A DNA stretch of 62,065 nucleotides, filler included, from Clostridia bacterium (lineage in GTDB: Bacteria; CBDUZB01; JAGLHV01), in assembly GCA_030637025.1 (NCBI GenBank). It is 4 parts of 4 records of this genome, joined end to end, with 100 filler letters (N's around TTAATTAATTAA, not from the genome) between each part and the next. Parts side by side here need not be neighbours in the genome. Positions count along the whole stretch, not along the records: positions 1 to 23,304 come from DAOVVV010000037.1; 3 more parts are not named here. The stretch is one strand, 5' to 3'. Both the position numbers and the translations under genes were made by a program. Numbering within the stretch: the first letter of the stretch is position 1; each line of letters begins with the position of its first letter. Below are positions 5,086 to 23,167 of the stretch, one piece after another. The notes under the pieces are model-generated. The model worked only from the letters and a program-made list of their open reading frames with translations, did no database searches and was not told where the DNA came from.

Positions 5086-5087
5086 AA

Positions 5088-8933: not shown

Positions 8934-9077
8934 TTTACCGGCTCTTTTTATACTTCAAATTCCAAACACTACAAGATTTATTGTAATATAAAAAAAAAAT
9001 AAAATCAAGCACAAAAAACAAAAAAAAAGGAACGGTTTTATTTTTTTAAAATTTAAAAAATAGAACCATCCTCTTTC

Positions 9078-10664
9078 TTAATCAGTCAAAATTACAAATT
9101 CCACACGTCTGTTTTCAGTCCGTCCCACCTTAGTTTTATTAGAACTTACGGGTTTTGTTTCTCCAAAACCCAAACAACTTAACCGCCCTCTGTTAATACC
9201 CTTTTTTACTAAATAATTAAATACGCTTTTCGCTCTCTTTTGGGAAAGGTTTAAATTATTCTCTGCCCTTCCGATTGAATCCGTATGGCCCTCTATCCTT
9301 ACTTTATAAAGGGGACATTTATTTAAAATTTCTACCACCTGATTTAAAGATGGTTTATCCAATATGCTGATTTTTGCATTTCCCGATTTAAAATGAGCTT
9401 TTACCGTAATAATTATTTTCTTTTTCTCTTTTCTTATTTCTAACTTTTTCGTTTTACGAATAGCATCTAAAAGTGCCTGTCGCTGAGAAGCTAATGCCTT
9501 TGCTTTTGTTGCCTCCATTCGGGCTCTTCTTGCTTCCCGTTTTGCCCGCTGAGCATCTTCCTTTGCTCCCTCGGCTAACTCCTGCAATCTTCGTTTTTCT
9601 TCTTCCTCTTCCTCTTTCTTTCGTGCTCTTTCCTCTTCCTTAATTGCCACTGTTTCTATTTCCTGCGGTGATTCTCCAAAACGGATGGTTAAAGATGCAC
9701 GATGTGAGCCACTTGTGTCTTCTATTTCTAACGGCCAGATGAAAGCATAATCAAACTGTAACCCGAATTTTCCCATTGTTTCATTATTAAAACTAAACCC
9801 GGAAGTAACCTCACGATTATTTCCCCCGATTCTAAATCCCCATGTCCTGCGGGCAAACCAACTTTCCCAACCCAGATAAACAATCAACTCTTCATCCCTA
9901 TAACTAACATCTACCGCAGAAACAATATTTTCCACCGCTAAAACATTTAAAAAATTACAATCTCCAAAATAATAAGCCAATCCTAACCTTCCTTCCAAAG
10001 GCACCTTATCTTCCGTCTTCAATCCTACATCCGGTTCGGTAATATTCTTAGCCATCAATCCAATAGACAAACCTTTCTCTTTTTTGCCGTTAGCTTTTAT
10101 TAATACCCCCACATCCCCGGTAAAATTACCTTTAGAATGGCCGTCGATAAAAACAGGGTCTTCCCTTGTCCGGTCATCCGTTGTATAAGAATGATTTAAA
10201 TATTTCAGATTAACCCCTAAAAAAAATGCCGGAATCAACTGGGGAAGAAAATCATTGACCTTCTTTGCATAAGAAAAGGTAAAGGTATTTTCTTCATATA
10301 ATTCCGTAGTAACAAAATTAGCCCAGGTCATTCCAAAACTACCTATTTTATTTAAAGGGAAAACAAAAGCACCATAATTTAAACCTAAATCAACCTTTTC
10401 CTCCCCTGCATACAAGTTCAACCCGGTAAATAAGCGGGCATACATAAAATTTGCTTCACAGCGTTTGATTTGGGCAATCCCGGCAGCATTCCACAAAGGA
10501 GCAGAGGCATCATCGCTTATTGCGGTAAATGCTCCTCCCATCCCTGCCGACCTTGTTCCCCAACCGCTATCTTTAAAAGCCGCTTCAGATAAAGAAACCA
10601 ATAACATATAAAACATAATAACCAAAACAGCTAAATTAACTTTATTAAATATTCTCCTATCCAT
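9078..10664 (-). CDS. PorP/SprF- or PorV-like barrel fused via a charged helical linker to an OmpA-like peptidoglycan-binding domain
   Basis: AAFKDSGWGTRSAGMGGAF-WNAAG; DYAFIWPL-GSHRASL; IEGHTDSIG-NLNLSQKRA-NRRVEF. Start moved to MDRRIF (10664) because the upstream 42 codons run through intergenic repeat sequence. Confidence 0.85.
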   Translation of the reverse strand: MDRRIFNKVNLAVLVIMFYMLLVSLSEAAFKDSGWGTRSAGMGGAFTAISDDASAPLWNAAGIAQIKRCEANFMYARLFTGLNLYAGEEKVDLGLNYGAFVFPLNKIGSFGMTWANFVTTELYEENTFTFSYAKKVNDFLPQLIPAFFLGVNLKYLNHSYTTDDRTREDPVFIDGHSKGNFTGDVGVLIKANGKKEKGLSIGLMAKNITEPDVGLKTEDKVPLEGRLGLAYYFGDCNFLNVLAVENIVSAVDVSYRDEELIVYLGWESWFARRTWGFRIGGNNREVTSGFSFNNETMGKFGLQFDYAFIWPLEIEDTSGSHRASLTIRFGESPQEIETVAIKEEERARKKEEEEEEKRRLQELAEGAKEDAQRAKREARRARMEATKAKALASQRQALLDAIRKTKKLEIRKEKKKIIITVKAHFKSGNAKISILDKPSLNQVVEILNKCPLYKVRIEGHTDSIGRAENNLNLSQKRAKSVFNYLVKKGINRGRLSCLGFGETKPVSSNKTKVGRTENRRVEFVILTD

Positions 10665-10773
10665 CTGATTATTCACTTCCCATTGACTACGAATTTTACT
10701 CCCCCCCCTGACACCTTCAACTGTTCTTAACCGTCTTTTCCAACCGTCTTTATTATTTTGCCTGCCCGCTAGT

Positions 10774-10824
10774 TTTATTGGGCAAGTCATTCCTGCGAAA
10801 GCAGGAATCTATTCTTTTGTCTTT
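10774..10824 (+). repeat. REP-like palindrome GTCATTCCTGCG(A/G)AAGCAGGAATC in a ~50-bp block, second copy at ~18842-18892
   Basis: Both copies lie between a type-B CTD gene and its downstream PorP-like gene. Confidence 0.8.
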
Positions 10825-10922
10825 TTCTTTGTTTTTAACTTCGCTGTTATCTTTTATCCTTTAACCAATCCAACCAATAAAACCAATTCAACCGTCTTTT
10901 AACTGTCTTTTACCCGTCTTTT

Positions 10923-12086
10923 TTACTTCGCTACGACTATTACTCCGCTTACTTTTTTCCCATTGTATTCATATTGATATATATAAACACCACTCTCTAC
11001 TATATCACTATCGTCATTGCGTCCATCCCATTGATAAGGAGCTATCTCTATAGTTCTTACTTTTCTACCTGTAACATCATAAATTTTAATGGAAACATTA
11101 TCCGTATCGGTTAACCCGTCAAAAGAAGCATAATCATTTATGCCATCCTGACTGGCGGGCGTAATAATTCTTTGCCGGGGACAATGAGTAAGCTCATTAA
11201 TTAACGCCGGAAAGACGGCAAATAAAGTATTATGGTCCAAAGAAGTAGTTACTGTATTTAAATCACTATTCACTGTTCCTCCTACTAACCTCCACTCAAA
11301 CCCATCCCACCATAAAATTTTTAATTCCCCTTCGGTAATAGGTGTCCCATCCTCTTTGACTTCACCGCTAAGATCAAAATAAAGTAAAGTTAACTTATAG
11401 GGTAAATTAAACTCAATATTTTCCGGTAAAATTTCATATACTGCTAACGGATTAACACTGCCGGCCACACCAAATCCCGCAGGAACATCAGCCGGGTCTT
11501 TCTGGCTAAAGGTTATCTCTATTTCACTTTCCAACGCACCTGCAGGTATTTCAAGACACACCTCTCCGTCTTCAGGATTTCCATCTACTAAAACAATAGT
11601 GCCCCCCTCAGGACCGATAATCTTAGTAACACTGGGATTTACAGCTATAATCTGCGCCGCACTTTTAGTACTAACACCCCCATCGCTATAAACAACCTCT
11701 ATATAACAGTTTACCCCATCTGTAGTTACTACATCTCCCGGAATATAATCTTTAAATTCATAAGTAGAAAGGGAAGGAGTAAACTCACGGGTAATTGCCC
11801 TATAGCTTGTCTCCGGTTCGGAAACCTTTTTATAATATAAAGATACCTTCTCCATTGTAATTTCCGTCATAATTTCCGCTTCCACATAAATCTTACTTCC
11901 CACTATATTAACTTCCGAAGGAATCTCAAACATTATCATCGCTTCAGGAATCAAGGAAACCAAAGCAACAGAACTTATAGTTTGTAATGTAGCAGCTATT
12001 AGCATAGAACAAGAAAAACACATAATGTTTAATCCCATTGCTAAACACAAAATTATCGATACTTTTTTCCTGCTGCGTTTAAACAT
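10923..12086 (-). CDS. Secreted protein with ZU5-like region and T9SS type-B-like CTD
   Basis: IGPEGGTI-LEIPAGALES-I; RIITPASQDGIND...WDGRND...ESGVYIYQY...VIVVAK. Confidence 0.8.
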   Translation of the reverse strand: MFKRSRKKVSIILCLAMGLNIMCFSCSMLIAATLQTISSVALVSLIPEAMIMFEIPSEVNIVGSKIYVEAEIMTEITMEKVSLYYKKVSEPETSYRAITREFTPSLSTYEFKDYIPGDVVTTDGVNCYIEVVYSDGGVSTKSAAQIIAVNPSVTKIIGPEGGTIVLVDGNPEDGEVCLEIPAGALESEIEITFSQKDPADVPAGFGVAGSVNPLAVYEILPENIEFNLPYKLTLLYFDLSGEVKEDGTPITEGELKILWWDGFEWRLVGGTVNSDLNTVTTSLDHNTLFAVFPALINELTHCPRQRIITPASQDGINDYASFDGLTDTDNVSIKIYDVTGRKVRTIEIAPYQWDGRNDDSDIVESGVYIYQYEYNGKKVSGVIVVAK

Positions 12087-12342
12087 TTCCTTCTCCTTTT
12101 ATTTTACCCGCCAATTTAAACTGCCTTTTAACCGTCTTTTTCTTTTCCCTTTGTGCGCCTATGTACCTTTTTCTTTTAACCAATTTAAACCAATTCAACT
12201 GTCTTTATATCTTTTGTCTTTTCCTTTGCCTTTGTCTGTCATCTGTGAACTATCTTTAACTGTCTTTTATCTTTTATTTTTTACCCAATTGAAACCAATT
12301 TAACCAATCAAACTGTTTTCTAACTGTCTTTGTTAACTTCCT

Positions 12343-13164
12343 TTAATAAATTATAATCTTTCCTTTTCTATTCATTTTAAAAGAGATCATTTTCTCAAGA
12401 ATATCCTCCGGATTACCATAATCAACAAACATACGCATTTTATATTTACCCTTTTTTAAATCCGCTTTTTTCCAGCTCCCATGATAAAATTCCGTTCGTT
12501 TAGGAAAAACCGGACGATTACATCGAAGTCTTATTCTTTTAATCTCTTTACCTTTTTTATCTATAATAACCGCTTCACACTGGGGGCGTAGATGAATATT
12601 TCCTTTATTTTCAATCTCCGCCGCAATCCACAACCCTTCTTCTGCTTTCTTTTTTTCTTTTATTTTAGACTTTTTTATAATTACTTTACTAATATTCGCT
12701 TTAACAATTTCAGTCCCTCTAATTATAACATATAAAGGAACACTAATCACCACATTAATCATACTTTCTTCCGGGCTTTCAGGAGAAAAACTATTCATAG
12801 CCATTAATAAACCCTTAGCTTTTTGCGGAATAGAAATCTTAAATTTTATTTCTTTTTTCTCCCCCGGTTTAAGCTTAAACTCCGAAGGAACAAATTGTAA
12901 CCAATCAGCAATCTTAATTTCTTTGTTTTCATCAGAGAGAAACCAGTATCTTGATTTTATACTAACTTTTGTAGTTTCCTTTTTCTGATTAAGAACAAAG
13001 TAACTCCCTTCTATTTTCTCCCCTGCAGCAATTTTTATCTCTATTTTACGGGGAGTGACACTAACAGTAGGTTTTTTCGCTAAAATTAACCCCACACAGA
13101 TTAAATTCAACCATGCCATCAAAAAAACTAATCTGATTGTCCACTGTTTACAATTTATTTTCAT
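12343..13164 (-). CDS. Exported two-Ig-domain chaperone-like protein (PapD/EcpB/DUF916-like)
   Basis: VSVTPRKIEI..., DWLQFVPSEFKLKPGEKKEIKFKISIP, VVISVPLYV, IENKGNIHLRP; very basic. Confidence 0.6.
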   Translation of the reverse strand: MKINCKQWTIRLVFLMAWLNLICVGLILAKKPTVSVTPRKIEIKIAAGEKIEGSYFVLNQKKETTKVSIKSRYWFLSDENKEIKIADWLQFVPSEFKLKPGEKKEIKFKISIPQKAKGLLMAMNSFSPESPEESMINVVISVPLYVIIRGTEIVKANISKVIIKKSKIKEKKKAEEGLWIAAEIENKGNIHLRPQCEAVIIDKKGKEIKRIRLRCNRPVFPKRTEFYHGSWKKADLKKGKYKMRMFVDYGNPEDILEKMISFKMNRKGKIIIY

Positions 13165-13207
13165 TAAGCTACATTCCCCTTCTTGTAAAATTCCTCTTCT
13201 TTTTCTC

Positions 13208-13243
13208 CCCCCTGGTTTCTTTCTTGATAAAGAAACCAGGGAA
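13208..13243 (-). terminator. Stem-loop 3' of the 235-aa subunit gene
   Basis: CCCTGGTTTCTTT-loop-AAAGAAACCAGGG inverted repeat. Confidence 0.6.
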
Positions 13244-13273
13244 AAAAGAAAAACCTATCTAAGCTTATATTTT

Positions 13274-13981
13274 TTATAAGCTATACAACTCTAATACTAA
13301 CTTACTCGTTCTATACTCTTGCAGCGAAGAATCATGAAACCCGGCTGATAAATAAACAATACTCGGTGAATCACCGCCTGAAGGATTATCCGTCTCTGTC
13401 GGCGAATCATGCCAGTAAATACCTTCATCATCCCATATCCGAACGCCAAAATCATCATCAACCCAAACTGGGTTGGTACGACTATGATCAGACATCCATT
13501 TCCAAAAATGATTGGCATAAGGTTCATCTCCCGGCCAAGGATCAGGCGCCGTAACTGCTTCCACTGCCCCCTTCACGCTAAAGGCTAAAGGAATATAGCT
13601 TGTCGTATCAGTTACCCCTACTAAACCACCGAAATCATCTGATGTACCTGTATACAAGGGATTAGCACCAGTACCCTTATTGTCCGTATAGATCTGAATA
13701 CCCCAATCCGCATAGTTACAATCAAGGCTAACCTCAATATACTGATCAGCTACTTTCCACGAAGCCTGACCGGCAACTACACCACTCCAGCCAACCTGAC
13801 TTGCCGATACATTGTCACTGACATTTTTAATGTCTATACTGAAAGTATAAAATTGGGTCCCGGACAAATCAACGCTTGCGGTTGAAGTCTCCGTCTGCAA
13901 ACTCGCAGCTGTAGCTATTCCCACACTAAACAGTAATAATCCAACCATAAGACTTAATACCATTAAAACACTCTTTTTCAT
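13274..13981 (-). CDS. Secreted beta-rich single-domain protein (WxL/pilin-like), putative major subunit
   Basis: Signal peptide, strong RBS; WGIQIYTDN and terminal YRTSKLVLELYSL; paralogous to the N-domain of 14043..15251. Confidence 0.6.
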   Translation of the reverse strand: MKKSVLMVLSLMVGLLLFSVGIATAASLQTETSTASVDLSGTQFYTFSIDIKNVSDNVSASQVGWSGVVAGQASWKVADQYIEVSLDCNYADWGIQIYTDNKGTGANPLYTGTSDDFGGLVGVTDTTSYIPLAFSVKGAVEAVTAPDPWPGDEPYANHFWKWMSDHSRTNPVWVDDDFGVRIWDDEGIYWHDSPTETDNPSGGDSPSIVYLSAGFHDSSLQEYRTSKLVLELYSL

Positions 13982-14042
13982 TCTTTTTCACCCCCCTTTT
14001 TTTATATATTTTATGCATTAAAAACTTAATTTTTATTATTTT

Positions 14043-15251
14043 TTACTCTTCCCACCGTACGTTATCTATCCAAAAAGTAATTCCACTCCCTCCATCGGCA
14101 AACATGGAAAAAGGTAATTTGATCTTACTAAAATTAATAGGAAGCCCATAAGTTTTACCTACCAGAGTGGAAAGATCTATTGCTACAGAATGCCAGGCAT
14201 CATCCAACGGCACCCCTAAATCAGCATAAACGTATTTTTCTGCAGAATCTAAACGACCCAGGGTATCTGTCCATTCAACACTTACCCCAAAATCATTACT
14301 GGCCTTTACATCAAATTTAAGATAAGCATCTGAGTATTCAGACATATCTGTTTCCACTGAAGGGCCGCCAATCCCATCAAATCCAAACTGAATCCATATA
14401 CCGCCCCAACCACCGGTAATAGTAAATTTTGAACTTGCCGGAGCTTCGGTATAAATTGTATCATCACCAACCATTTCAATTGTACCCCAAAATCCAATAT
14501 ACCCACCATCCGGGTCAGGTGGATTGAGTACATCCGCCTTTAAAGCAGAATATTTATAACTATCACAAAGGATACCATAAACGAGACTATCATCCAAAGA
14601 ATATAGCTCCAGAATTAATTTATTAGTTGTATACTGCTGGGCAGTAGATTGATGAAACCTTCCGGCCAAATAAACAAGATTAGGAGAATCATTCCATGCA
14701 GGATTGTACGGCTCTGTATCGGATTCATGCCAATAAATACCGTTTTCATCCCAAACCCGGACATAACTATTGTCATCTTCCCAAACAGGATTAACACGAC
14801 TATAATCCGACATCCATTTCCAACAATGATTGTTATAAAACTCCTCACCTACCCCTTCCCCCGGTTCAGGATCAGGAGCAATGACAACTTCCGTTGAGCC
14901 TTTCACGCTAAAAGCTAAAGGGATATAGGTTGAAGGATGAATTAGCCCCACTAAACCACCCGGATCATCTGCTGTACCGGTATACAAAGGGTCAGCACCA
15001 GTACCTTTATTATCCGTATACATTTGAACACCCCAATCCAGAAGATTACAATCAATATTAATCTCAATATATTGGTCCGCTACTTTCCAGGTATCAGACC
15101 CGGCAATTATATCTGAATAGGTAATTTGAGTATCGGAAGTGTTATCCTCAACTTTTTTAATCGCGATATCAAAAGACCAATGTGCATATACCGGAAGACT
15201 TAATATTATCATCAATATAAATCCCCAAATAATCATTTTTTTTTGTCTCAT
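14043..15251 (-). CDS. Paralogous subunit domain + C-terminal CBM/galactose-binding-like domain, putative adhesin
   Basis: WKVADQYIE, WGVQMYTDNKGTGA, YTTNKLILELYSL shared with 13274..13981; then GGWGGIWI...DMSEY..LKFDVK...WHSVAIDLS...FWIDNVRW. Confidence 0.65.
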   Translation of the reverse strand: MRQKKMIIWGFILMIILSLPVYAHWSFDIAIKKVEDNTSDTQITYSDIIAGSDTWKVADQYIEINIDCNLLDWGVQMYTDNKGTGADPLYTGTADDPGGLVGLIHPSTYIPLAFSVKGSTEVVIAPDPEPGEGVGEEFYNNHCWKWMSDYSRVNPVWEDDNSYVRVWDENGIYWHESDTEPYNPAWNDSPNLVYLAGRFHQSTAQQYTTNKLILELYSLDDSLVYGILCDSYKYSALKADVLNPPDPDGGYIGFWGTIEMVGDDTIYTEAPASSKFTITGGWGGIWIQFGFDGIGGPSVETDMSEYSDAYLKFDVKASNDFGVSVEWTDTLGRLDSAEKYVYADLGVPLDDAWHSVAIDLSTLVGKTYGLPINFSKIKLPFSMFADGGSGITFWIDNVRWEE

Positions 15252-15289
15252 ATCTGATTTTCCTTAAATTATTTTACTATTTTACTAAT

Positions 15290-15345
15290 AAAAAACGGGC
15301 TACCTTACTTGGCTATAATTATCTTATAGTCAGTTCGGTAGCCCG
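15290..15345 (-). terminator. Intrinsic terminator overlapping the aptamer 3' end (expression platform)
   Basis: CGGGCUACC...GGUAGCCCG followed by a U run. Confidence 0.8.
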
Positions 15346-15504
15346 GCTATCTTGTTTTTTAAAAAAAGACCCGTAACTTTGCCTGCTTACTAAGCAAAAA
15401 CTACTTTTTGTCCCGCATAGTAAGCGATTCATCCATTATCCGCCGCTACTTAACAACGGAAAAATAAATAAATGTCTTCGCCTCACGACGAATCTGCCTT
15501 TTCG
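15336..15504 (-). ncRNA. c-di-GMP-I (GEMM) riboswitch with a 91-nt two-hairpin insertion
   Basis: CG-AAAAG-GCAGA-UUCGUC(GUGA)GGCGAA-GAC [15473-15383] GCAAAGUUACGGGUCU...AGAUAGCCGGGCUACCG. Confidence 0.8.
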
Positions 15505-15551
15505 GATAAAATTTTCAAAGAAATACTTGTTTAAGAGCTTCCTTACTTAAT

Positions 15552-15580
15552 AGTATAGCACAAAACTTCTCTTTTGTCAA
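15552..15580 (-). promoter_or_regulatory. Sigma70-type promoter of riboswitch operon B
   Basis: TTGACA-17 nt-TATACT with extended -10 TG. Confidence 0.75.
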
Positions 15581-15605
15581 TATTGTTTATGTCCCATAAC
15601 CTTAC

Positions 15606-16544
15606 TTATTCATACGCCTGGGCACTAACACAAACAGATATTTTTTGTGGACTGCCAATGGAAGTTGTCTGCGGAGCTTTAAATTCAACCCATAAATATA
15701 CAAATTCTCCTACAGATAAACCTACCCCATCTTCATTCCCGGCAAATTTACCATCCGGAGAAGAGCCACATTCTGCCGGGGTTGTAGATAAAGCATGCTG
15801 ACTATTATTAAAACTCCCTTCTGACGGCCGAGTTGAATTAAACATTACACTAAGAATATACCGGTTATGCTCAATCGGTTCACTTTGCACTGCAGTCCAG
15901 CCGGGAGGATTTTTTAACTTTAATAAACAATTTAATACACCCTCACCAATATTTCTAACCAGAAAAGATTGAGTAGATATTGCATCCCCACCGGCAGAAA
16001 CCTCTCCAAAATCATAGGCACCTTCTATAGATATACCGATTATTTCTGCCCTGGCTATAGCATAAGCACAACTACCTATCCCTGTATAAGGGTCATAATT
16101 AGAAATATATCCCTCATAAGGCGGAGGGCCATCAGCAGCTATTATCTCCTCTGGAACTTCTTCTAAGACAGCATTATCCGTGGCTTTAATGGAAATATAA
16201 TAAAGTTGCCCCGGATTAAATCCGGTAAGCATATATCTTTCTAATTCCCCTTTTGCTTTTGGTGTCCAGGTTTGAGAATATATAGTGGCATTGTTATATG
16301 CTTCTTCTGTATCTATGGGACTACCGGAATATCTCACCTCATAACTTGCCACTCCGGGTTGCCAATCAGATAATTCGTTCGGAACTCTCCAGGTTATTTC
16401 TATTTCTCCTCTGTCCAATCCGGTATAAGCTGCTAAATCATCAAGAGTTAAAAGATATCCCGGGACGGAAGTGGCATAACTATATGCAATTACTCCCAAA
16501 ATAATACTACTTGAGATTATAAATCCCCTCAAAATCTTTTTCAT
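15606..16544 (-). CDS. Secreted FN3-like domain + C-terminal beta-rich domain shared with 20611..21702
   Basis: IEITWRVP-YEVRYS-LTGFNPGQLYYISIKATD; then YDFG...VRNIG...PPGW...LWVEFKAP...QKISVCVSA. Confidence 0.65.
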   Translation of the reverse strand: MKKILRGFIISSSIILGVIAYSYATSVPGYLLTLDDLAAYTGLDRGEIEITWRVPNELSDWQPGVASYEVRYSGSPIDTEEAYNNATIYSQTWTPKAKGELERYMLTGFNPGQLYYISIKATDNAVLEEVPEEIIAADGPPPYEGYISNYDPYTGIGSCAYAIARAEIIGISIEGAYDFGEVSAGGDAISTQSFLVRNIGEGVLNCLLKLKNPPGWTAVQSEPIEHNRYILSVMFNSTRPSEGSFNNSQHALSTTPAECGSSPDGKFAGNEDGVGLSVGEFVYLWVEFKAPQTTSIGSPQKISVCVSAQAYE

Positions 16545-16781
16545 TATTCCCCCTCAACTACTCCAAACAAACTCCGTTGTCTATGGACCGTATTTAACTA
16601 ACCAATTTAAACCAATAAAACCGTCTTTTAACTGTCTTTAAATCCCCCTAACCCCTTTTTTCAAAGGGGGAAAAATTGTCTTTTTCTTTTACTTTGTGCC
16701 TCTGTGCCTTGATGCCTTTGTGCCTGTCTTTTTATTCCTTAACCAATTTAAACCAATATAACCAATAAAACCGTTTTTAAT

Positions 16782-17669
16782 CTATTTCGTCGTTACATAA
16801 ATCTTACAATAAACCTCTTTAGCCACATCCCCTGAAAAAACCTTAATCCGGGCAATAAACATATATTTTTTCTTGCGATATTTTCTTTTTTTAGGAAAAC
16901 TAAGAAACACCTTTATCTTTTTGCTGCTCTTCATTCCGACAATTGCTTTCTTGGCACTAAAAGTCAAAAAGGACGGGTCAGGACAATCTTCATAACCTTT
17001 AGTAAGTTCAACCTGAGAATCCGCTACCCTGATACTTTCGATATTATAGAGACTTCCGATTTCCCCTAAATTTTTTATTTCCATAACCTTACCGGTTTTT
17101 TTCTCTATATCAATTATTGCGCCCACTTTCACTTTTTCAAGGTGTATTTCCTGCGGATTAATTGTAAAATTTAAATTTAGCGGTTTCTTTATTTTCCCTT
17201 TTTTATGAAAAGTAGTAAACAAGAATTTACTCTCTACCCCTACATTAATTACTTCGTTAGTGCTGTAAGACCAGATATTAAACTGATATTTTTTATCCAG
17301 ATATTCATCCCTATCCGGAATAGAAATAACTATATCCATTGCCTGTTTTTTTCCGGGCCCAATAATAGAATTTTCAGGAATAATTTTTATCCAGGAAACG
17401 TTTGGTATCGGTTGGTAACCTTCTTTTAATTTCTTTTTAGCCGGGGATAATACTTCTGCTTTAAGATTTATTGCCCTTTCCCCGGTATTGGTAATAACTA
17501 AAAATAAATTAGCTAAATGCGAGGTATGATGAGTTTGTCCCACCCTTAAATTTTGAATAGTTACTTCTTCAAAAGAAGCAATAATTCCTGTAGCATAAAC
17601 AGGATGGATAAAACAAACTATAGTAAACAAAAAGAAACAACTAATAATGATTAAACCTTTTTTAATCAT
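16782..17669 (-). CDS. Exported protein with two tandem chaperone-like Ig domains
   Basis: Internal repeat GYQPIPNVSWI...SIP...KKYQF / GYEDCPDPSFL...SFP...KKYMF; very basic. Confidence 0.55.
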   Translation of the reverse strand: MIKKGLIIISCFFLFTIVCFIHPVYATGIIASFEEVTIQNLRVGQTHHTSHLANLFLVITNTGERAINLKAEVLSPAKKKLKEGYQPIPNVSWIKIIPENSIIGPGKKQAMDIVISIPDRDEYLDKKYQFNIWSYSTNEVINVGVESKFLFTTFHKKGKIKKPLNLNFTINPQEIHLEKVKVGAIIDIEKKTGKVMEIKNLGEIGSLYNIESIRVADSQVELTKGYEDCPDPSFLTFSAKKAIVGMKSSKKIKVFLSFPKKRKYRKKKYMFIARIKVFSGDVAKEVYCKIYVTTK

Positions 17670-17722
17670 TTATTCCTTCTCTCCTGATGTGAAAACATAT
17701 TTATTAACCTATTATATACAAT

Positions 17723-18739
17723 TTAGAAATGAATTCCTAAAGAAACACGATGTGTCCCGCTGGTTTCTTCTATTTCCAGCGGCCAGATAAGGGCATAATC
17801 AAACTGGACGGCAAAAACTTCACCCATTAAATGATTTAATCCCATACCCAAAGTAAACTCTTGTAAATTATAGCCTATCCGGAAGGCAAAAGCAGATGAA
17901 AACCGCGTTTCCATCCCTAAATGAAAGTTAATATCTTTATCGCGATAAGTAAAATCAAAAGCAGGGATAAATCCTTCTATGTTCAAAAAATTAAATATTC
18001 TACAAGCATTACCTCTATAAGCAATTCCTGCTCTCATTTCTAAAGGAACTTCATCTTTCAATTTATACTCACTATTATCCAGACCTACATCCGGCTGATT
18101 AATATTTTTCAGGGATAAACCAAGAGACACCGGTGAATCTTTTTGGGGTTTAACTAAAACTCCTAAATCAACAGCACATGCACCCGCAGAATCCCCATCT
18201 TCAAATACCGGATCATCTACTGTCCGTTCATCCAGGGTATACCCATGATTTAAATATTTTAAATTCATTCCCAAAAATACAACCGGAACCATTTTAGGAG
18301 CAAAATCATTAATTTTTCTGGCATAGGAAACACTAAGAGTGTCTTCTTTATACAATTTTGTAGAAGCAAACCTTGCCCAGGATAAGCCAAAAGCTCCCAT
18401 TCTTTCCGTCGGACAAATAAAAGAAAAATAATTCAATCCTAAAGTCGTAGTATCTTCTCCGGCATATAATTTTAAACCGCTAAATAATCGAGCATACATA
18501 AAACTTGCTTCGTATTGTTTTACCTGAGCTATTCCTGCCGGATTCCATAAAGGAGCATTAGCATCATCAGCTATTGCCACAAAAGCACCGCCCATTCCGG
18601 CCGGCCGTGTTCCCCAACCGCTATCTTTAAATGCCGCTTCACCCAAAGTAACAAAAAACAAACAATAAACACCTGAAATAATAAATAACCCGATTTTATT
18701 AAATGTTTTTCTATTCATCTTAATTACCATTTTCACCAC
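17723..18739 (-). CDS. PorP/SprF- or PorV-like outer-membrane barrel (exact start uncertain)
   Basis: AAFKDSGWGTRPAGMGGAFVAIADDANAPLWNPAG; terminal GTHRVSLGIHF; close paralogue of the 9078 barrel. Confidence 0.85.
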   Translation of the reverse strand: MVKMVIKMNRKTFNKIGLFIISGVYCLFFVTLGEAAFKDSGWGTRPAGMGGAFVAIADDANAPLWNPAGIAQVKQYEASFMYARLFSGLKLYAGEDTTTLGLNYFSFICPTERMGAFGLSWARFASTKLYKEDTLSVSYARKINDFAPKMVPVVFLGMNLKYLNHGYTLDERTVDDPVFEDGDSAGACAVDLGVLVKPQKDSPVSLGLSLKNINQPDVGLDNSEYKLKDEVPLEMRAGIAYRGNACRIFNFLNIEGFIPAFDFTYRDKDINFHLGMETRFSSAFAFRIGYNLQEFTLGMGLNHLMGEVFAVQFDYALIWPLEIEETSGTHRVSLGIHF

Positions 18740-18954
18740 TTCCTCTTAACTACAAATTCAAAACTTTTAAACAAATCCCAATTTCAAATTTACTACTTGC
18801 CATTCACAATCTCTTATCTTCTTCTTTTCCTGCCCTCTATTTTTATTGGGCAAGTCATTCCTGCGGAAGCAGGAATCTATTCTTTTGTCTTTATCTTTTA
18901 ACTTTGTGCCTCTGTGCCTTGATGCCTTTGTGCCTGTCTTTTGACCGTCTTTTA

Positions 18955-20526
18955 TTATTTCGCTACTGCTATTACCCCGCTGGTCAATTTTCCATTGTAC
19001 TTGTATTGATAAATATAAACACCGCTTTCCACTATATCCCTATCGTCATCCCGGCCATCCCACCTTACCTGAATATATGGTTCTACTGAAATTATTTCGG
19101 GGGTTAAAGTCCTTATTTTCTTACCTCTAATATCAAATATCTTAACTTCACTATCCAACCCATTAAAATCAGCATAATCATTTATCCCGTCGCCGTTAGG
19201 CGTTATAATCCGTTCATAAGGCCTAAAATCTTTTGATTCAAAACCCCTGGCGGCAAAAAGGGCGTACATAGAAAAATGAGAAATTTCAGCCGTAACAGTA
19301 TGATTTTCGGTATTAACTACACCCCCGACATAACGCCAGCTATAGCCATCCCAGTAAAAAAGTTTTAAAGTAGTAGCGTCAAGAGGAGGAAAAATATCAT
19401 CAACAAATCCATCACTTTGATTAACAGAATCATCGCTTTCATTATCCATATAAAGCATAGACAACATTACCGGCCTTCTAAACTCAAAATTGTCCGGAGA
19501 AAAATCATAAACAGCTACCGGTTTATCATTCAAGATAAGACGCCGCGTAGCTATAGGTACACTCACTTCTTCAATTTCCTTTTGTGTAATGGTTATCGTT
19601 GTATCAGCAGTTAAAGCATTGCGCGGTATAACAATTTTAGTTTCTCCGTCTTCAGAATTACCATCGACTACTGTTACCGTACCCCCATCCTCAGTGACCG
19701 TACTACTGGTTATTGTACTTACTTCCAGAATATAAGGAACTTCAGGAGCATTAAAAGGAAAATAGTTTGTATCCTCTGTAATATCCATAGCCATATAATA
19801 TTCTATTCCCTGGGCAGTTACTGCTTCTTTAGGAATAACCGTCCTGCCTGTATAAAAAGCACCTGCCGGGTCAGGGCTAAACAAAGTACTTGTATAAAAC
19901 TCTTCCCCTTTTTTTCTATAATATAAAGTCACTTTATTTATGTCATCATCCATAGTAGAAAAATCCAAGTTAAATACTATTTTATTACCAATCATTCCTA
20001 CTTTGTTAATAAACGGAGAAGTACTTGACCCATAAGAACTAAAGAAAGACGTTACATTTAAATACATTTTGGTTATTCCGCCTGCCCCTGCATTGGGACC
20101 GACATCTATTGCTTCTAACCGAAATTGATATTTTTTATCCCTATATTGCTGGTCTTCCGGAATATTAATAATCATATTAATTGCCTTTTGTTCTCCTGCG
20201 GCCAAAATGAAACTGGTCGGCTCAACCAATTGTATCCAGGAAAGATCCGGTAAGACCTCATAACCCTCTTCATCCGGGTTACCTATAAATAAACTTACCT
20301 CCACTTGAGCAGAAGTAGTTTTAGGATTTATTACATAAATATGAGCATAAGAAGGAACCATCTCATTATAATTGTAAACACTTCCTATTCCTATATCTAT
20401 CCATACCTCCGAAGGGGTAATCTGCACACCTAAGGCAAAAACAAGCACAGGAATAAAACATAAGGTTATTCCAGCTATGATAAAAAGTAATTTAATTTTT
20501 AGTTTTCTAAATAAAAATACTTGCAT
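18955..20526 (-). CDS. Chaperone-like N-domain + ZU5-like region + T9SS type-B-like CTD
   Basis: GYEVLPDLSWI...NIPEDQQYRDKKYQF; RIITPNGDGIND...WDGRDD...VIAVAK; paralogue of 10923..12086. Confidence 0.8.
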   Translation of the reverse strand: MQVFLFRKLKIKLLFIIAGITLCFIPVLVFALGVQITPSEVWIDIGIGSVYNYNEMVPSYAHIYVINPKTTSAQVEVSLFIGNPDEEGYEVLPDLSWIQLVEPTSFILAAGEQKAINMIINIPEDQQYRDKKYQFRLEAIDVGPNAGAGGITKMYLNVTSFFSSYGSSTSPFINKVGMIGNKIVFNLDFSTMDDDINKVTLYYRKKGEEFYTSTLFSPDPAGAFYTGRTVIPKEAVTAQGIEYYMAMDITEDTNYFPFNAPEVPYILEVSTITSSTVTEDGGTVTVVDGNSEDGETKIVIPRNALTADTTITITQKEIEEVSVPIATRRLILNDKPVAVYDFSPDNFEFRRPVMLSMLYMDNESDDSVNQSDGFVDDIFPPLDATTLKLFYWDGYSWRYVGGVVNTENHTVTAEISHFSMYALFAARGFESKDFRPYERIITPNGDGINDYADFNGLDSEVKIFDIRGKKIRTLTPEIISVEPYIQVRWDGRDDDRDIVESGVYIYQYKYNGKLTSGVIAVAK

Positions 20527-20552
20527 TTTCTCACTTCCATTTTTTTACTACA

Positions 20553-20594
20553 GTATACAAGATGGTTTTTATTTAATAAAACCACCTTGTATAC
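20553..20594 (-). terminator. Stem-loop 3' of the first gene of operon A
   Basis: GTATACAAGATGGTTTT...AAAACCACCTTGTATAC imperfect inverted repeat. Confidence 0.55.
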
Positions 20595-20610
20595 CTTTAT
20601 AGACTTTTTT

Positions 20611-21702
20611 TTAACTTTTTTCCGCAGTAACTACTACGCGAATTGTTTGTTGTCCTGATATTGAACCACCTGTCGGTGTTTTGAGTCGAATCCATACTGC
20701 CCGCGTATTATTCCATGCCGAATCCCAGGAAACAGCTACACCATTACCACTATCATCACTGTCAAATTTACCTACCGCTCCTGAATCCGCACACTCCTGA
20801 GAAGTAGTAGTAATAATATCCTCTGCACCAAAATCCTCTGTTATTATACTCCCAGGTGTTACATCCGTGTTAGAAACCACACCGTAAATAACATATTCGT
20901 TAAATCCAGGGGTCTCATCAGCACTTGAAGACCAACCCGGAGGGTCAAGTACTTTAAGCAGAAAATCTTCGTTCACATCTCCGATATTGGCTACGGTCAA
21001 ATACTTATCACCTACAGCGTTTTCACTGCTAATCATCTCTATCCCATATGATGAATCTCCAAAAGCCATATTTCCGGAAACACTTACACCTACTGTTCCT
21101 CCGCTTATAGTAACCGTGATAATACCTGCTCCACCGCCCACATATTTTATATCATCAACAAAAACCTCAATCGGGTTGGTTAAACTGGAATTTTCACCTG
21201 CCGCTAACATCATCCACCAAAGATTGGTAACCGCACTCATATTTTGCTTGGAAAGATCTATTTCTGCTGCTGTCCATCCGGTAGAACTAATAGTAATCGG
21301 ATCTCCGGCAACAGTATGTTCACCGCAAGAATCCTCATCCAAAGTTCCCGAACCTACACCGAAATGAGCAACAACACCTTCTTTATTAGCAGAAACATTA
21401 AATTGCATTTTCGTATGGCCGGTTAAATCAAGAGGTATCGCTCCGCCAAAAGCTTGTGCACCGATTTTTGCCCAGGTAATTTCTTTAGGAAAAGAAAATT
21501 TTGCACAAATATCGTCTCCGCCTTCATATGGGTCAGTAATCTCTGAGTCCGTTATATCACCGGCAGCACCACTCCATAAAGACAGAACCTGCTGCCAACT
21601 ATCTTCATAAATCGGAGTATCTGCATAGGAATTACCTACCATAAACATGCTGGTTACAACTAACAACGCCATTATAACTAAAGACTTTTTCATTTTTTTC
21701 AC
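20611..21702 (-). CDS. Secreted CBM-like domain + C-terminal beta-rich domain shared with 15606..16544
   Basis: LDLTGHTKMQF...WTAAEIDLS...VFVDDIKY; then MAFG...VANIG...PPGW...VWIRLKTP...QTIRVVVTA. Confidence 0.65.
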   Translation of the reverse strand: MKKMKKSLVIMALLVVTSMFMVGNSYADTPIYEDSWQQVLSLWSGAAGDITDSEITDPYEGGDDICAKFSFPKEITWAKIGAQAFGGAIPLDLTGHTKMQFNVSANKEGVVAHFGVGSGTLDEDSCGEHTVAGDPITISSTGWTAAEIDLSKQNMSAVTNLWWMMLAAGENSSLTNPIEVFVDDIKYVGGGAGIITVTISGGTVGVSVSGNMAFGDSSYGIEMISSENAVGDKYLTVANIGDVNEDFLLKVLDPPGWSSSADETPGFNEYVIYGVVSNTDVTPGSIITEDFGAEDIITTTSQECADSGAVGKFDSDDSGNGVAVSWDSAWNNTRAVWIRLKTPTGGSISGQQTIRVVVTAEKS

Positions 21703-21891
21703 CTCCTTCCTTTGTTTTATTTTTTTTATTTATTTTGTAATTATAAAAAAAACCATACCACTAAATCCGGGAGGAAAACAACAATTTTAATATACCTGAT
21801 TAGCTTAAATATGGGCAATTCGGTAATAAAAAACGGAAAGTTTATTAATTCTCAGAGGTTTTTACTTAAAACTTTCACCTAATTATATAAC

Positions 21892-21950
21892 AAAAAAAAC
21901 CGACCCACCTACTTGGCTACAATTGTCTTATAGTCAGTTCGATAGTTCGG
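21892..21950 (-). terminator. Intrinsic terminator overlapping the aptamer 3' end
   Basis: CCGAACUAUC...GGUGGGUCGG followed by U8. Confidence 0.75.
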
Positions 21951-22106
21951 CCATCCCCCCATTACTTACCGGCGGACCCGCAACTTTGCCTGCTTACCAG
22001 GCACAAATCAAAAATATACCTTTTGACCTGACTCCAGTAAGAGACTTACCCGTCATCACTTAGCGACGAATAAGTGCCTTCGCCTCACAGCGAATTTGCC
22101 TTTTCG
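21940..22106 (-). ncRNA. GEMM-I riboswitch with an 86-nt two-hairpin insertion; U at the C92-equivalent position
   Basis: CG-AAAAG-GCAAA-UUCGCU(GUGA)GGCGAA-GGC [22075-21990] GCAAAGUUGCGGGUCC...GGAUGGCCGAACUAUCG. Confidence 0.8.
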
Positions 22107-22137
22107 TATAAAATTTTCAAATATCAAATCTAAAAAT

Positions 22138-22167
22138 ACTATACCATATTTTTTTTACCTTTGTCAA
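22138..22167 (-). promoter_or_regulatory. Sigma70-type promoter of riboswitch operon A
   Basis: TTGACA-18 nt-TATAGT with extended -10 TG. Confidence 0.7.
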
Positions 22168-22189
22168 GAAAAAAATAAAAAACATTTTA

Positions 22190-23143
22190 CTACCTAACCG
22201 GAACACCCTTCTCTCCTCCCCATTTTATAGTTATTCCTATCCTGTGGGGGAAATAGAATTCACTCTGTTTTCTCCATGCACTCCGGTAAACAAAAGCATA
22301 ATCCAGCTGAAAATCTAAAAACTCAATTCCAAATCCGCTGGTTATTTCATTTTCGTTTATACCCAATCTGGCCGATATTAAATCTTCCATCAACCGGTAT
22401 TCCCCTCCACAGTACATTTTTATTTTTTCCCCGTCTATTTTTAAAGTGTCAATAGCCAGATATAATTTATTTTCCAATATCCTGCAATCTACCCCAAATC
22501 TTACACTAAAAGGAAACTTATCCTCCTCTTCTATCAATTTAATAACCGGTTTAATTATGTTCTGTAAATACAAACCAGCGGAAACAGGCATAAGTTTATA
22601 TTTATACATTACCCCTAAATCCGCTCCATATCCGGTATCAGAATAAGTATCTATTTTCTCCCGTACTATTTTCACGCTCCCGCCTAAATAAAAAGCAGAG
22701 CATATTTTTTTACTTAAAGCGATTATCCCTGCTGTTTGAGCAACATCAAAATCTCCGATATCTTCATTATCCTGATTGCGTTTATCCAATCCCGAGGACC
22801 TTAAATCTACTATCCCCAGTCCTATCCCAACATTTTCCCGCGGTAAAGCTAACCCTAAAAAACTATACGGGGTATCCTCATTCAATAAAGAATAAGCCGC
22901 AACTAATTCTTTTCTTTTTATTAAACTCAAACCCGCAGGATTCCAGTAAACACTACTGGCATCCTCACATCCTGCAGTATATGCTCTGCCTAAACCTAAA
23001 GAACGAACACCCGCACCCCAAAAAAGATATGCTCCCGGTATCCCTCCGTCTTGTTCGGCAAATCCTACCTCAGGACATATCCACAAACTAATTACCCCTA
23101 TTAATCCTAATCTCAAGATTAATCTATATTTTTTTTTACCCAT
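22190..23143 (-). CDS. PorV/PorQ-family outer-membrane barrel
   Basis: GAYLFWGAGVRSLGLGRAY-DASSVYWNPAGL; LDYAF...HRIGITIKW. Confidence 0.8.
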   Translation of the reverse strand: MGKKKYRLILRLGLIGVISLWICPEVGFAEQDGGIPGAYLFWGAGVRSLGLGRAYTAGCEDASSVYWNPAGLSLIKRKELVAAYSLLNEDTPYSFLGLALPRENVGIGLGIVDLRSSGLDKRNQDNEDIGDFDVAQTAGIIALSKKICSAFYLGGSVKIVREKIDTYSDTGYGADLGVMYKYKLMPVSAGLYLQNIIKPVIKLIEEEDKFPFSVRFGVDCRILENKLYLAIDTLKIDGEKIKMYCGGEYRLMEDLISARLGINENEITSGFGIEFLDFQLDYAFVYRSAWRKQSEFYFPHRIGITIKWGGEKGVPVR

Positions 23144-23167
23144 TTTCCTCTTCTCTTTCTTAATTTG

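Follow-up and report, generated by a model that had tools for sequence, protein, structure and literature searches.

Two parallel operons of an uncultured seep bacterium as candidates for an usher-less fiber with a type IX-style anchor

What might a cell with two membranes assemble from a pair of adjacent operons that repeat the same list of parts, each led by an interrupted riboswitch? The question is raised by a 62,065-nt stretch of DNA (hereafter, the window) from an uncultured seep bacterium (GenBank assembly GCA_030637025.1), in which two tandem rows of five open reading frames (ORFs) occupy the minus strand, operon A from 22167 to 15606 and operon B from 15580 to 9078. All ten ORFs were found where the first-pass annotation, made by inspection of the sequence, had placed two parallel five-gene operons, and the part lists are parallel as first observed: each operon encodes two acidic secreted proteins with a common domain, a basic immunoglobulin (Ig)-like protein, a protein with a C-terminal domain (CTD) of the CHU_C kind (type B), and a barrel. 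Our preferred reading, to which we assign a probability of roughly one half, is an usher-less, chaperone-assisted fiber whose CTD protein is anchored on its own barrel and which would be turned on by cyclic di-GMP (c-di-GMP).

In operon A, the acidic secreted subunits are A1 (20611-21693, within an ORF of 20611-21702 and with its likely ATG at 21693) and A5 (15606-16544), the latter combining an fn3-like domain with a C-terminal domain that A1 also carries; A2 (18955-20526) is the CTD protein, with an N-terminal domain resembling the first domain of A4; A3 (17723-18718, within an ORF of 17723-18739, its start inferred from a start region common with B5) is the barrel; and A4 (16782-17669) is a basic two-domain PapD/ASH/WxLIP-like protein and putative chaperone. 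Operon B comprises B1 (14043-15251), a long subunit with a C-terminal galactose-binding-like domain; B2 (13274-13981), a short subunit with an N-terminal extension; B3 (12343-13164), a basic Ig-domain protein distantly related to A4; B4 (10923-12086), a type B CTD protein and paralog of A2 without the chaperone-like domain; and B5 (9078-10664, within an ORF of 9078-10790, likely ATG at 10664), a PorV-family barrel joined to OmpA. The predicted isoelectric points are 9.7 for A4 and 9.9 for B3, versus 4.0-4.4 for the subunits (4.05 for A1). Positions 1-23304 of the window correspond to contig C58 of the source genome (2.36 Mb, 77 contigs, 97.76% complete), whose phylum numbers just four species-level genomes from a single genus and lies outside Bacteroidota. 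Throughout, C numbers denote contigs of this genome and L numbers denote loci from other metagenome-assembled genomes (MAGs) or from this genome itself.

Conservation of the gene neighborhood

Relatives of A4 occur in Elusimicrobiota, Omnitrophota, Zixibacteria, Poribacteria, Eisenbacteria, Firestonebacteria, FCPU426, Ignavibacteria, Nitrospirota, and others. Neighborhoods were compared for 79 loci with A4 homologs in named MAGs, of which 46 were at least 12 kb long; ORFs were called by ourselves, each from the first start codon that follows a stop, and the hidden Markov models (HMMs) were likewise built in-house. The C-terminal domain common to A1 and A5, named A5C here, was detected by HMM in a same-strand ORF in 64 of the 79 loci, and a CTD ORF in 47. 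A small A5C gene lies directly upstream of the A4 homolog in 27 of the 79. BLAST searches with the window proteins, applied to the 46 longer loci, recovered A5C in 27, CTD proteins in 35, and PorV-like barrels in 29; the CTD protein and barrel were found together in 28 loci, all three parts in 14, and any part in 43.

The full A-type order, namely A1-A2-A3-A4 followed by an extra one-domain A4-like gene and a large A5-like gene, recurs in four loci (L031, L081, L089, and L090). Conservation of the gene set, which the first-pass annotation presupposed, is thus borne out by this order and by the A5C, CTD, and barrel genes that surround A4 homologs elsewhere. The passengers tailed by A5C are diverse and include S8 proteases (L038, L094). 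A third, larger A-type locus lies on contig C5 of the source genome (∼1900-28300, minus strand; L102 and L103). Its genes comprise a pair of the A4 family, one for a small subunit of 199 aa, one for a CTD protein of 591 aa, and five for A5C-tailed proteins of 326-1804 aa; no GEMM motif was seen before this locus. The B-type set is narrow, with its order kept in two genus relatives, and B3-like genes accompanied by CTD and barrel-OmpA genes were found in FCPU426 and Elusimicrobia loci (L069, L071, and L077).

A shared N-terminal strand in subunits and CTD proteins

In a donor-strand system, all proteins that must fit into a given groove have an identical N-terminal strand. In the WxL/Elr pilus of Enterococcus faecalis, the Elr pilins and the LPxTG base protein ElrB are reported to carry a common N-terminal strand (bioRxiv 10.64898/2026.10.17.759780). 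The N-terminal regions of small A5C proteins and of adjoining N-complete CTD proteins were compared by their best ungapped 9-mer score in 37 loci, against 1332 non-cognate pairs; the presence of related loci among the non-cognates makes this test conservative. Ten of the 37 loci exceeded the 99th percentile of the non-cognate pairs, where about 0.4 would be expected, and 11 exceeded the 95th. The matching strands sit directly after the signal peptides and differ between loci, as in the cognate pairs AWDDGFTITLTP / AWGDGFTITLNV, ADIPSDSFTLTV / ADVPSDSFTLLV, DVYLYVTPTGIT / DVYLYVRPTCST, and VSSDSLTITITP / VSSDSLTVTMRP. In the C5 locus, both the small subunit and the CTD protein start with ALSEDIYCTV after unlike signal peptides, and the five large A5C-tailed proteins are without this sequence. 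In operon B, the mature N-terminus of B4 (ATLQTISSVALVSL) bears a suggestive resemblance to that of B2 (ASLQTETSTASVDL).

A locus-specific strand of this kind would follow the logic of donor-strand exchange by analogy with the WxL/Elr pilus, and the first-pass interpretation gains support from the N-terminal strand that small subunits and CTD proteins have in common. A related arrangement was observed in three loci (L018, L019, and L021, at ∼10850-11400), which encode minimal anchors of 152-156 aa consisting of a signal peptide, a VSVTVVVV-type strand like the INVTVTI of the neighboring small subunit, and a type A-like CTD that starts with LSQNYPNPFNP.

Subunit families

The two secreted proteins of each operon do share a domain, as had been noticed from the sequence: A1 and A5 are 26% identical over 241 aa (E = 2e-13) and have in common a C-terminal domain of ∼150 residues, and B1 and B2 are 61.5% identical over 195 aa. 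The further impression of two unrelated subunit families in A and B also held, with an hhalign probability of 12.7% between A5C and the B family; a relationship between them was accordingly rejected. The A5C HMM matches A1 with E = 2e-43, ending at the C-terminus, and A5 with E = 1e-52. In A1, the domain follows a strand-like linker (IITVTIS) and an N-terminal domain of an unnamed family with no match in Pfam or NCBIfam; in A5, an fn3 match reaches 21.7 bits, under the cut-off of 25. The carbohydrate-binding-module (CBM)-like domain that the first-pass annotation ascribed to one subunit of each operon can be retained for the C-terminal domain of B1, where the galactose-binding-like Exop_C was matched in two of ten family members, both long B1 orthologs, and finds no library counterpart in the N-terminal domain of A1. 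Apart from the sub-threshold fn3 of A5 and the Exop_C of B1 orthologs, no Pfam or NCBIfam family was found in the four subunits A1, A5, B1, and B2. Searches of 20 A5C members against Pfam returned only scattered sub-threshold Ig matches, WxL (PF13731) was absent from the four subunits and from these 20 members, and a sequence search of the PDB with the A5C profile gave nothing meaningful (best E = 0.91).

A5C is a large unnamed family: of 1.84 billion cluster representatives, its profile matched 2604 at E ≤ 0.001, of which 1316 reached E ≤ 1e-10. The domain is carried by 149 of the best 150 representatives, which divide into 90 proteins of ≤240 aa and 59 larger ones of up to 1630 aa; its end lies no more than 12 aa from the C-terminus in all 90 small and in 56 of the 59 large proteins, and is at the extreme C-terminus in 129 of the 139 A5C proteins of the loci. 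The same layout of pilins versus two-domain adhesins is reported for chaperone-usher and WxL pili (bioRxiv 10.64898/2026.10.17.759780). By a soft measure that depends on local-alignment ends, the alignment reaches back before the strand position in 83 of the 90 small versus 32 of the 59 large A5C proteins.

Structures were modeled with AF2 for A4 and A5. In the A5 model (122 sequences), the C-terminal domain has a predicted local distance difference test score (pLDDT) of 92-98 and is preceded by a segment below 50, which is disordered. The leading Foldseek rows for A5C are mostly donor-strand fiber subunits (CfaB, TasA, an archaeal bundling pilus, CsuA/B, the PapG pilin domain, CupE, PapA, and cannulae). 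The model suggests an Ig-like sandwich that is compatible with, though not diagnostic of, a pilin; for the A-type subunit domain, such a fold is not that of an enzyme, a point on which the first-pass reading hung.

Relatives in the B-type set are few, 8 for B2 and 5 for B3. B2 begins with an extension of ∼20 residues (ASLQTETSTASVDLSG) that is missing from B1. Neither B2 nor its family had a Pfam or PDB sequence match, and in the ESM Atlas B2 falls among unnamed clusters of 187-220 aa (0.95-0.96). A link from B2 to a WxL cluster in the same atlas (0.85) was treated as a lead only, and a protein pattern used to look for relatives of the B-type subunits in the contig collection gave 214 matches, none of which was confirmed.

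Chaperone-like proteins A4 and B3

The AF2 model of A4 (24 homologs, pLDDT 86.3) contains two β-sandwich domains after the signal helix, which is its sole helix; the model ends in a β strand, with no C-terminal membrane helix. Its top Foldseek rows belong to ciliary proteins and CEP192, matched at their ASH/PapD-like repeats (E = 1.9e-13 to 2.2e-10), followed by FimC (9.2e-8), WxLIP (1.2e-7), and Caf1M (2.3e-7), with CupB2, CfaA, and EcpB also present. Superposition by VIA-align placed domain 1 on Caf1M (Z = 12.2, root-mean-square deviation 2.3 over 106 aa), YadV (12.0), CsuC (11.3), and FimC (11.2), with an ASH domain of CEP192 scoring equally well (11.9); domain 2 superposed on SafB (Z = 11.5), and the whole protein on WxLIP 9i1y (Z = 12.1 over 198 aa). 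As modeled, A4 has a fold of the PapD/ASH superfamily, and the fold alone does not single out a chaperone. The description of these proteins as chaperone-like stands on this tandem PapD/ASH/WxLIP-type fold and on the basic charge of both A4 and B3.

A4 and B3 appear to be distant relatives (hhalign probability 71%, E = 3.7e-5, 140 columns). B3 shows weak matches under the cut-off to ASH and to WxLIP_PGBD (DUF916; 17.4 versus 27.3 bits), whereas in A4 Pfam gave no match to DUF916; DUF3324 was not matched. A PDB sequence search with the A4 profile yielded nothing meaningful, the best match (E = 0.0017) being to designed helical proteins, and in the ESM Atlas A4 falls in unnamed Elusimicrobiota clusters (0.96-0.97).

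The predicted complex of A4 with the A5C domain scored 0.48 (runs of 0.47, 0.48, and 0.54) versus 0.00 for the best control, with at least 80% of contacts agreeing between runs and a partner pLDDT of at least 82. In calibration, 116 of 157 solved complexes attained the mark, as did 2 of 215 mismatched pairs; scores of ≤0.60 within the passing set came from only 18 of the 157 solved complexes and from both passing mismatches. The model lends weak support to binding of the A5C domain by A4.

CTD proteins, barrels, and the export machinery

The CTD proteins and the barrels are paralogous between the operons, as had been proposed: A2 and B4 are 37.8% identical over 357 aa (E = 2e-65), and A3 and B5 are 53.7% identical over 335 aa (E = 6e-130). 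CHU_C (PF13585, cut-off 27) is passed by A2 (28.8 bits) and B4 (39.9 bits), and TIGR04131 is matched at 22.4 and 29.2 bits, under its cut-off of 35; the ZU5-like domain of A2 and B4 is sub-threshold (16.7 bits in A2, cut-off 21). A2 is built of a domain like domain 1 of A4, a middle β domain, a ZU5-like domain with HFS at its end, and the type B CTD; its N-terminal domain resembles A4 with E = 1.6e-11 and B3 with E = 3.5e-5. In eukaryotes, ZU5 and Nup98-type domains have HFS as their autoproteolysis motif, and by analogy self-cleavage of A2-type proteins just before the CTD is possible. The motif lies at 19210-19230 of the window (residues ∼433-437, SHFSMYALF), and the ZU5-like domain ends in HF[S/C] in seven of nine aligned relatives, the exceptions being B4 with HNT and L092 with RLG.

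The barrels had been called PorP-like. A3 does pass PF11751 PorP_SprF (23.5 bits, cut-off 22.3), but NCBIfam places it closer to PorV/PorQ (NF033709 PorV_fam, 97.8 bits, cut-off 90), and TIGR03519 reaches 44.9 bits, under 90.55. B5 scores 65.8 bits with PorV_fam, below the cut-off, and 81.2 bits with OmpA; a lysine- and glutamate-rich charged coiled stretch joins its barrel to the OmpA peptidoglycan-binding domain, and relatives of B5 of 520-740 aa are common beside CTD genes in Elusimicrobia loci. In Bacteroidota, type B CTD cargo is reported to depend on and bind cognate PorP/SprF-like proteins (PMC9143113, PMC12618676), with PG1035-PorP-PorE described as a type B cargo complex of P. gingivalis (PMC9143113). 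Judged by gene content, the CTD/barrel pair of each operon fits a type B CTD cargo with a cognate barrel.

The source genome encodes 29-41 CTD-bearing ORFs and 27-32 PorV-family barrels, and at least 15 of 29 CTD matches lie less than ∼500 nt from a PorV_fam match. The genome, by its sequence, looks like a case of one-barrel-per-cargo type IX secretion in a non-Bacteroidota phylum. An SprA-like protein is represented by four collinear pieces (60.7, 55.5, 39.3, and 37.4 bits; cut-off 200) in one 1734-aa frame of contig C73. PorU gave 29 matches in the genome, all to the C-terminal region of the model (position 877 or later) and none over the cut-off; GldK was not found in the genome, nor were GldL and GldM, the last two in searches without a positive control (no control genome matched).

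Interrupted c-di-GMP-I aptamers

Both operons are preceded by a c-di-GMP-I (GEMM-I) aptamer that is split in two. Aptamer A (21938-22107, minus strand) consists of a 5′ half at 22107-22076, an 86-nt insert at 22075-21990, and a 3′ half at 21989-21938; aptamer B (15334-15505, minus strand) consists of a 5′ half at 15505-15474, a 91-nt insert at 15473-15383, and a 3′ half at 15382-15334. Rfam RF01051 matched aptamer B at 15334-15397 with 35.5 bits (gathering threshold 35), skipping the first hairpin, and the fold of aptamer A has a z-score of -3.8. In both leaders, the missing 5′ half lies ∼105-110 nt upstream and aligns to the intact aptamers of orthologous operons, so the first-pass annotation was correct to call the riboswitch split. 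The 5′ half, made up of the CGAAAAGGCA junction and a GNRA hairpin, is well conserved, and the insert separates this first hairpin from the GCAAAG junction and second hairpin. The orthologous A-type operons of L031, L089, and L090, three of 11 loci scanned, have uninterrupted c-di-GMP-I-GGC aptamers (70 bits, gathering threshold 59) located 80-115 nt before the A1-like gene; no c-di-GMP-I aptamer was found in eight more distant loci.

The interrupted form recurs. Aptamer B has a 99% identical copy in a genus relative, the form is present in two genus relatives, and a third interrupted aptamer of the source genome (contig C1, ∼36870-37075, minus strand; L101 608-770) precedes a 1070-aa CTD protein and a PorV-like barrel. 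A narrow split-form pattern was matched at five places among the species genomes of the contig collection, three of them in the host genus, and each of the five has its own two-hairpin insert. The interrupted aptamers outside the host genus are at L106 1501-1646 (plus strand) and L107 1499-1659 (minus strand); one, in a PVC-group MAG, precedes a type IV pilin-like gene, and the other, in a different MAG, a radical-SAM-like gene. With cmscan, three split copies aligned to RF03167 across the whole model (positions 1-80) with 24-28 bits. The possibility that the insert is a mobile repeat of the source genome was rejected, each insert matching only itself. Judging from sequence, the split GEMM element is a real and recurrent variant with a putative ligand, and it may be an undescribed structural variant of GEMM-I. 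Among the papers that a search turned up for c-di-GMP-I-GGC, none, to judge by title, concerns its ligand.

Alignment of five split leaders and folding by RNAalifold predicted the first aptamer hairpin, two insert hairpins, and a terminator, with 16 of 50 predicted pairs kept through two-sided changes in at least one sequence (n = 5, three of them close kin); columns 192-199 pair with columns 232-239 and are followed by a T run. In leader A, a terminator-like stem and U-run occupy 21891-21950 (minus strand), the 5′ arm overlapping the 3′ strand of the aptamer. The intrinsic terminator of leader B (15290-15344, minus strand) is formed by GGGCTACC ... GGTAGCCC followed by T6, with its 5′ arm within the aptamer, and its pairing is conserved with a compensatory change. 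Because the 5′ arm of the terminator overlaps the 3′ strand of the aptamer, the arrangement suggests an ON switch.

GEMM-like junction motifs were found at 18 sites in the genome, seven of which (in six operons) have a CTD or PorV-like barrel gene within three ORFs. From these motifs preceding CTD/barrel genes in six operons, c-di-GMP riboswitches seem to govern surface proteins generally in the host. One of the seven is the window's third riboswitch unit, on the plus strand at 5003-8485, in which an intact c-di-GMP-I-GGC aptamer (5003-5086, 65.2 bits) stands directly before genes for a CTD-bearing S8 protease of 822 aa and for a PorV-family barrel (181.7 bits).

Promoters, stem-loops, and other features of the window

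The sigma70 promoters proposed for the two operons proved to be the best two of the 48 promoter-like sites in 8900-23304, a total not above that of shuffled sequences (mean 45.2). Promoter A (22138-22167, minus strand; TTGACA, 18-nt spacer, TG-TATAGT), with 11 of 12 matches and an extended -10 TG, scored best, and promoter B (15552-15580, minus strand; TTGACA, 17-nt spacer, TG-TATACT), also with 11 of 12 matches and the TG, scored second; they precede rows A and B, respectively.

Stem-loops on the minus strand follow one subunit gene in each operon. The one between A1 and A2 (20545-20601) has a folding energy of -24.8 kcal/mol and a z-score of -7.18, with none of 200 shuffles as good, and also gave spurious microRNA-type Rfam matches; for the one between B2 and B3 (13209-13242), the fold of 13165-13276 has a z-score of -3.53, again with none of 200 shuffles as good. 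A stem-loop after the subunit gene has a role in the pap and fim operons, and those after A1 and B2 would favor an excess of subunit message. The spacers between CTD and barrel genes both contain a 20-nt palindromic hairpin (ATTCCTGC-loop-GCAGGAAT; 10789-10808 and 18857-18876) within a 75-nt block conserved between the operon A and operon B spacers. A role of this hairpin as a locus-specific regulator was rejected, as it is a genome-wide intergenic repeat with 182 matches (both strands, ≤2 mismatches). Beyond the operons, runs of N at 23305-23404, 41480-41579, and 46407-46506 mark the window as several contigs laid end to end, so that a TonB-dependent receptor ORF at 23463-25301 belongs to a different contig from operons A and B.

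A proposed mechanism and its alternatives

The mechanism that we favor builds on what was observed, namely the gene set, the domain families, the modeled folds of A4 and A5C, the conserved neighborhood, the N-terminal strands, the missing usher, and the overlap of aptamer and terminator; polymerization, chaperone role, export route, surface location, ligand, and ON logic are what we infer. It would run as follows. Sec would export all parts, including the acidic subunits A1, A5, B1, and B2, and in the periplasm the basic A4 or B3 would hold the subunit domain. Those subunits that bear a strand (A1 and perhaps A5; B2) would polymerize head to tail, and those that have a passenger but no strand (B1, and large proteins in other loci) would cap the fiber as adhesins with carbohydrate-binding-type domains. 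At the base, the CTD protein would close the fiber by its copy of the strand in the B4 type or by a tethered, chaperone-like first domain in the A2 type, and its type B CTD would dock this base protein on the adjacent barrel (A3 or B5), the B5 barrel being also fixed to peptidoglycan through OmpA. An SprA-like translocon would be the likely exit, and a fiber led or followed through it by the CTD protein is conceivable. Transcription would read through the leader terminator only when the interrupted aptamer binds a cyclic dinucleotide. As worded in the first-pass annotation, the adhesive fiber, the T9SS-like (type IX secretion system-like) export, and the cyclic-dinucleotide ligand were not supported, being inferences to which the complex model lends weak support.

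Several results weigh against this fiber. The weakest link is export, as passage of unfused subunits across the outer membrane is unexplained, with PorU and GldK not found, nor GldL and GldM in searches that lacked a positive control. The N-terminal match is weaker or absent in the other 26 of the 37 loci; that of B2 and B4 scores ∼21 versus a non-cognate 95th percentile of 27, under the significance bar; and A2 is without the shared strand, starting instead with its homolog of A4 domain 1. No Foldseek match of A5C reached E ≤ 0.001, the best being 2.9e-3 to CfaB, and its best Z (7.3) was reached with an ASH/PapD-like domain; pilins scored 5.6-6.8, and each of these values is under the level at which, according to the tool, a match may reflect only a common arrangement; three modes of fold search listed no Z ≥ 8 and no WxL-annotated chain, and the model did not match the WxL chain of 9i25. 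Of the pilin/WxL/TasA-like and PapD-like folds expected by the first-pass annotation, the PapD-like one was seen in A4, and the A5C rows were weak, with no WxL chain listed. A4 has two similar ASH-like domains instead of a PapD_N/PapD_C pair, and neither Pfam family was matched in A4 or B3 at E ≤ 0.01. For the B-type subunits the reading draws on only eight relatives of B2, and aptamer A scored only 22.1 bits with Rfam (E = 0.64, at 21938-22030), under the gathering threshold.

One alternative is surface display without polymerization. A5C would then be a docking or sorting module, dockerin-like or a third C-terminal signal of T9SS type, by which passengers such as CBM-like domains, fn3 domains, proteases, and giant adhesins are attached either to the barrel or to the Ig domains that A4 and A2 provide, and the small A5C-only proteins would be fillers or regulators. 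Like T9SS CTDs, A5C almost invariably forms the very C-terminus of its protein (129 of 139 in loci, 146 of 149 representatives); its passengers are very diverse, S8 proteases included; its plain Ig-like sandwich is nearest to ASH; and the model of A4 with A5C, itself weak support for binding, is silent on polymers. With 90 of the 149 representatives being little more than the A5C domain, however, those proteins have nothing to display, a strand-like extension precedes the domain in 83 of those 90, and pure docking does not need a CTD protein that copies this extension locus by locus; separate CTD proteins also exist in the same loci. On balance we regard display as unlikely. Another possibility is that these are ordinary cargo operons of a reduced T9SS-like system, in which the CTD protein and PorV-like barrel are the functional unit; the remaining genes would then encode secreted proteins of no relation to it, glycan-binding or structural Ig proteins that have only c-di-GMP regulation in common. 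The pairing of CTD and PorV-family barrel genes genome-wide, the riboswitch-led operons that hold only a CTD protein and a barrel (window 5003-8485; contigs C1 and C2), and the reported pairing of type B cargo with cognate PorP/SprF-like proteins (PMC9143113, PMC12618676) all fit it, yet it fails to explain why A4 and A5C genes keep company in different phyla (64 of 79 loci), and it accounts neither for the chaperone-like fold of A4 and the charge of A4 and B3 nor for the shared N-terminal strands; we rate it as quite unlikely.

The classical solution, a chaperone-usher pilus whose usher is encoded elsewhere or was missed, would fit the PapD-like domain 1 of A4 and the many chaperone-usher pilins among the top Foldseek rows of A5. 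A classical usher was sought and not found: PF00577 had no match in the 97.76% complete genome, whereas the E. coli control was matched, A4 and B3 are without PapD_N/PapD_C, and none of the 79 loci was seen to need an usher, though ushers were not searched for there. This leaves the classical pilus very improbable. A sortase (PF04203) was likewise not found in the genome, with three controls matched, nor was a FimA-type (type V) pilin, in line with the first-pass statement that no usher, sortase, or type V pilin is present.

Returning to the usher-less fiber, a more far-reaching form of it, somewhat against the odds in our estimate, would be a new class of pilus, widespread in diderms (Elusimicrobiota, Omnitrophota, and others) and with subunits in >2600 sequence clusters, in which the barrel pair replaces the usher of Gram-negative pili as well as the sortase of the WxL pilus, and a CTD base with the subunits' donor strand or a chaperone domain plugs the fiber into a PorV/PorP-type barrel. 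In the host lineage, a new c-di-GMP-I variant with two additional hairpins at the ligand-binding junction would govern expression.

Comparison with known systems

The CTD/barrel pair can be set beside the type B cargo of T9SS (SprB-SprF, PG1035-PorP-PorE). As there, a CHU_C gene directly precedes a barrel gene of the PorV/PorP superfamily, and B5 resembles PorP and PorE, as described in PMC9143113, in a single chain. The barrel here belongs best to the PorV/PorQ family, the host is outside Bacteroidota, and the CTD protein seems to be the base of a multi-protein assembly and not the cargo itself; compared with a whole T9SS, the SprA-like protein is under the cut-off and PorU, GldK, GldL, and GldM were not detected in the genome. 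The interrupted aptamers retain all the conserved junction and hairpin motifs of c-di-GMP-I (GEMM-I, RF01051/RF03167) and its overlap with a terminator, but differ by a two-hairpin insert of ∼72-91 nt before the GCAAAG junction, with scores falling to 24-36 bits. In them, a riboswitch would tolerate, or make use of, a structured insert placed at the junction where the ligand binds.

Against chaperone-usher pili (Pap, Fim, Caf1, CFA/I, and Csu), the likenesses are a basic chaperone-like protein with acidic subunits, superposition of A4 domain 1 on Caf1M, YadV, FimC, and CsuC (Z of 11-12), a C-terminal subunit domain in two-domain adhesins, and a stem-loop after a subunit gene; the differences are the lack of an usher and of a PapD_N/PapD_C signature, an ASH-like domain 2 in A4, and a subunit fold similarity of only Z 5.6-6.8. 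Resemblance of A5 to TasA fibers, archaeal bundling pili, and cannulae (8aur, 7ueg, 9h8b) is weak (Foldseek E = 4.3e-3 to 2e-2, Z 5.9-6.0), and these fibers are not known to need a dedicated chaperone for their assembly.

The functionally closest system would be, by analogy, the WxL/Elr pilus, reported as usher-less and as confined to Bacillota (bioRxiv 10.64898/2026.10.17.759780), although none of the sequence hallmarks of that pilus was recovered here. Going by what the preprint reports, both systems are without an usher and have a two-domain chaperone or putative chaperone with a pilus-chaperone-like fold, small subunits consisting of an N-terminal strand and one Ig-like domain, large adhesins with a C-terminal domain, a base protein that combines the subunits' donor-strand motif with an anchoring signal, and several operons per genome. 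Here, in contrast, there is no WxL and no DUF3324, DUF916 reaches only 17.4 bits in B3, A4 is without a C-terminal membrane helix, the host has two membranes, control is by riboswitch, and a type B CTD and outer-membrane barrel take the place of LPxTG and sortase. Calling the system undescribed, as the first-pass annotation did, must be qualified to this extent: an usher-less, chaperone-guided donor-strand-exchange pilus has been reported for Gram-positives in that October 2026 preprint, and it is in the protein families and the anchor that the present locus differs. Among the 12 papers listed of 145 matched in a thin literature search, none connects donor-strand exchange to type IX components.

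The locus is best read as a donor-strand-type fiber with a type IX-style anchor in diderms, for which the odds that the subunits polymerize are about even. Donor-strand-exchange pili are textbook structures, known from Proteobacteria with an usher and, through the October 2026 preprint, from Bacillota without one. If the reading is true, a function would be at hand for >2600 unnamed protein clusters and for many of the "CTD plus PorV-like barrel" pairs outside Bacteroidota, and the exit of a fiber from a diderm cell without an usher would become testable with a five-gene cassette. The system would then be a third donor-strand solution, common in uncultured diderm phyla and anchored by a type IX CTD/barrel pair.

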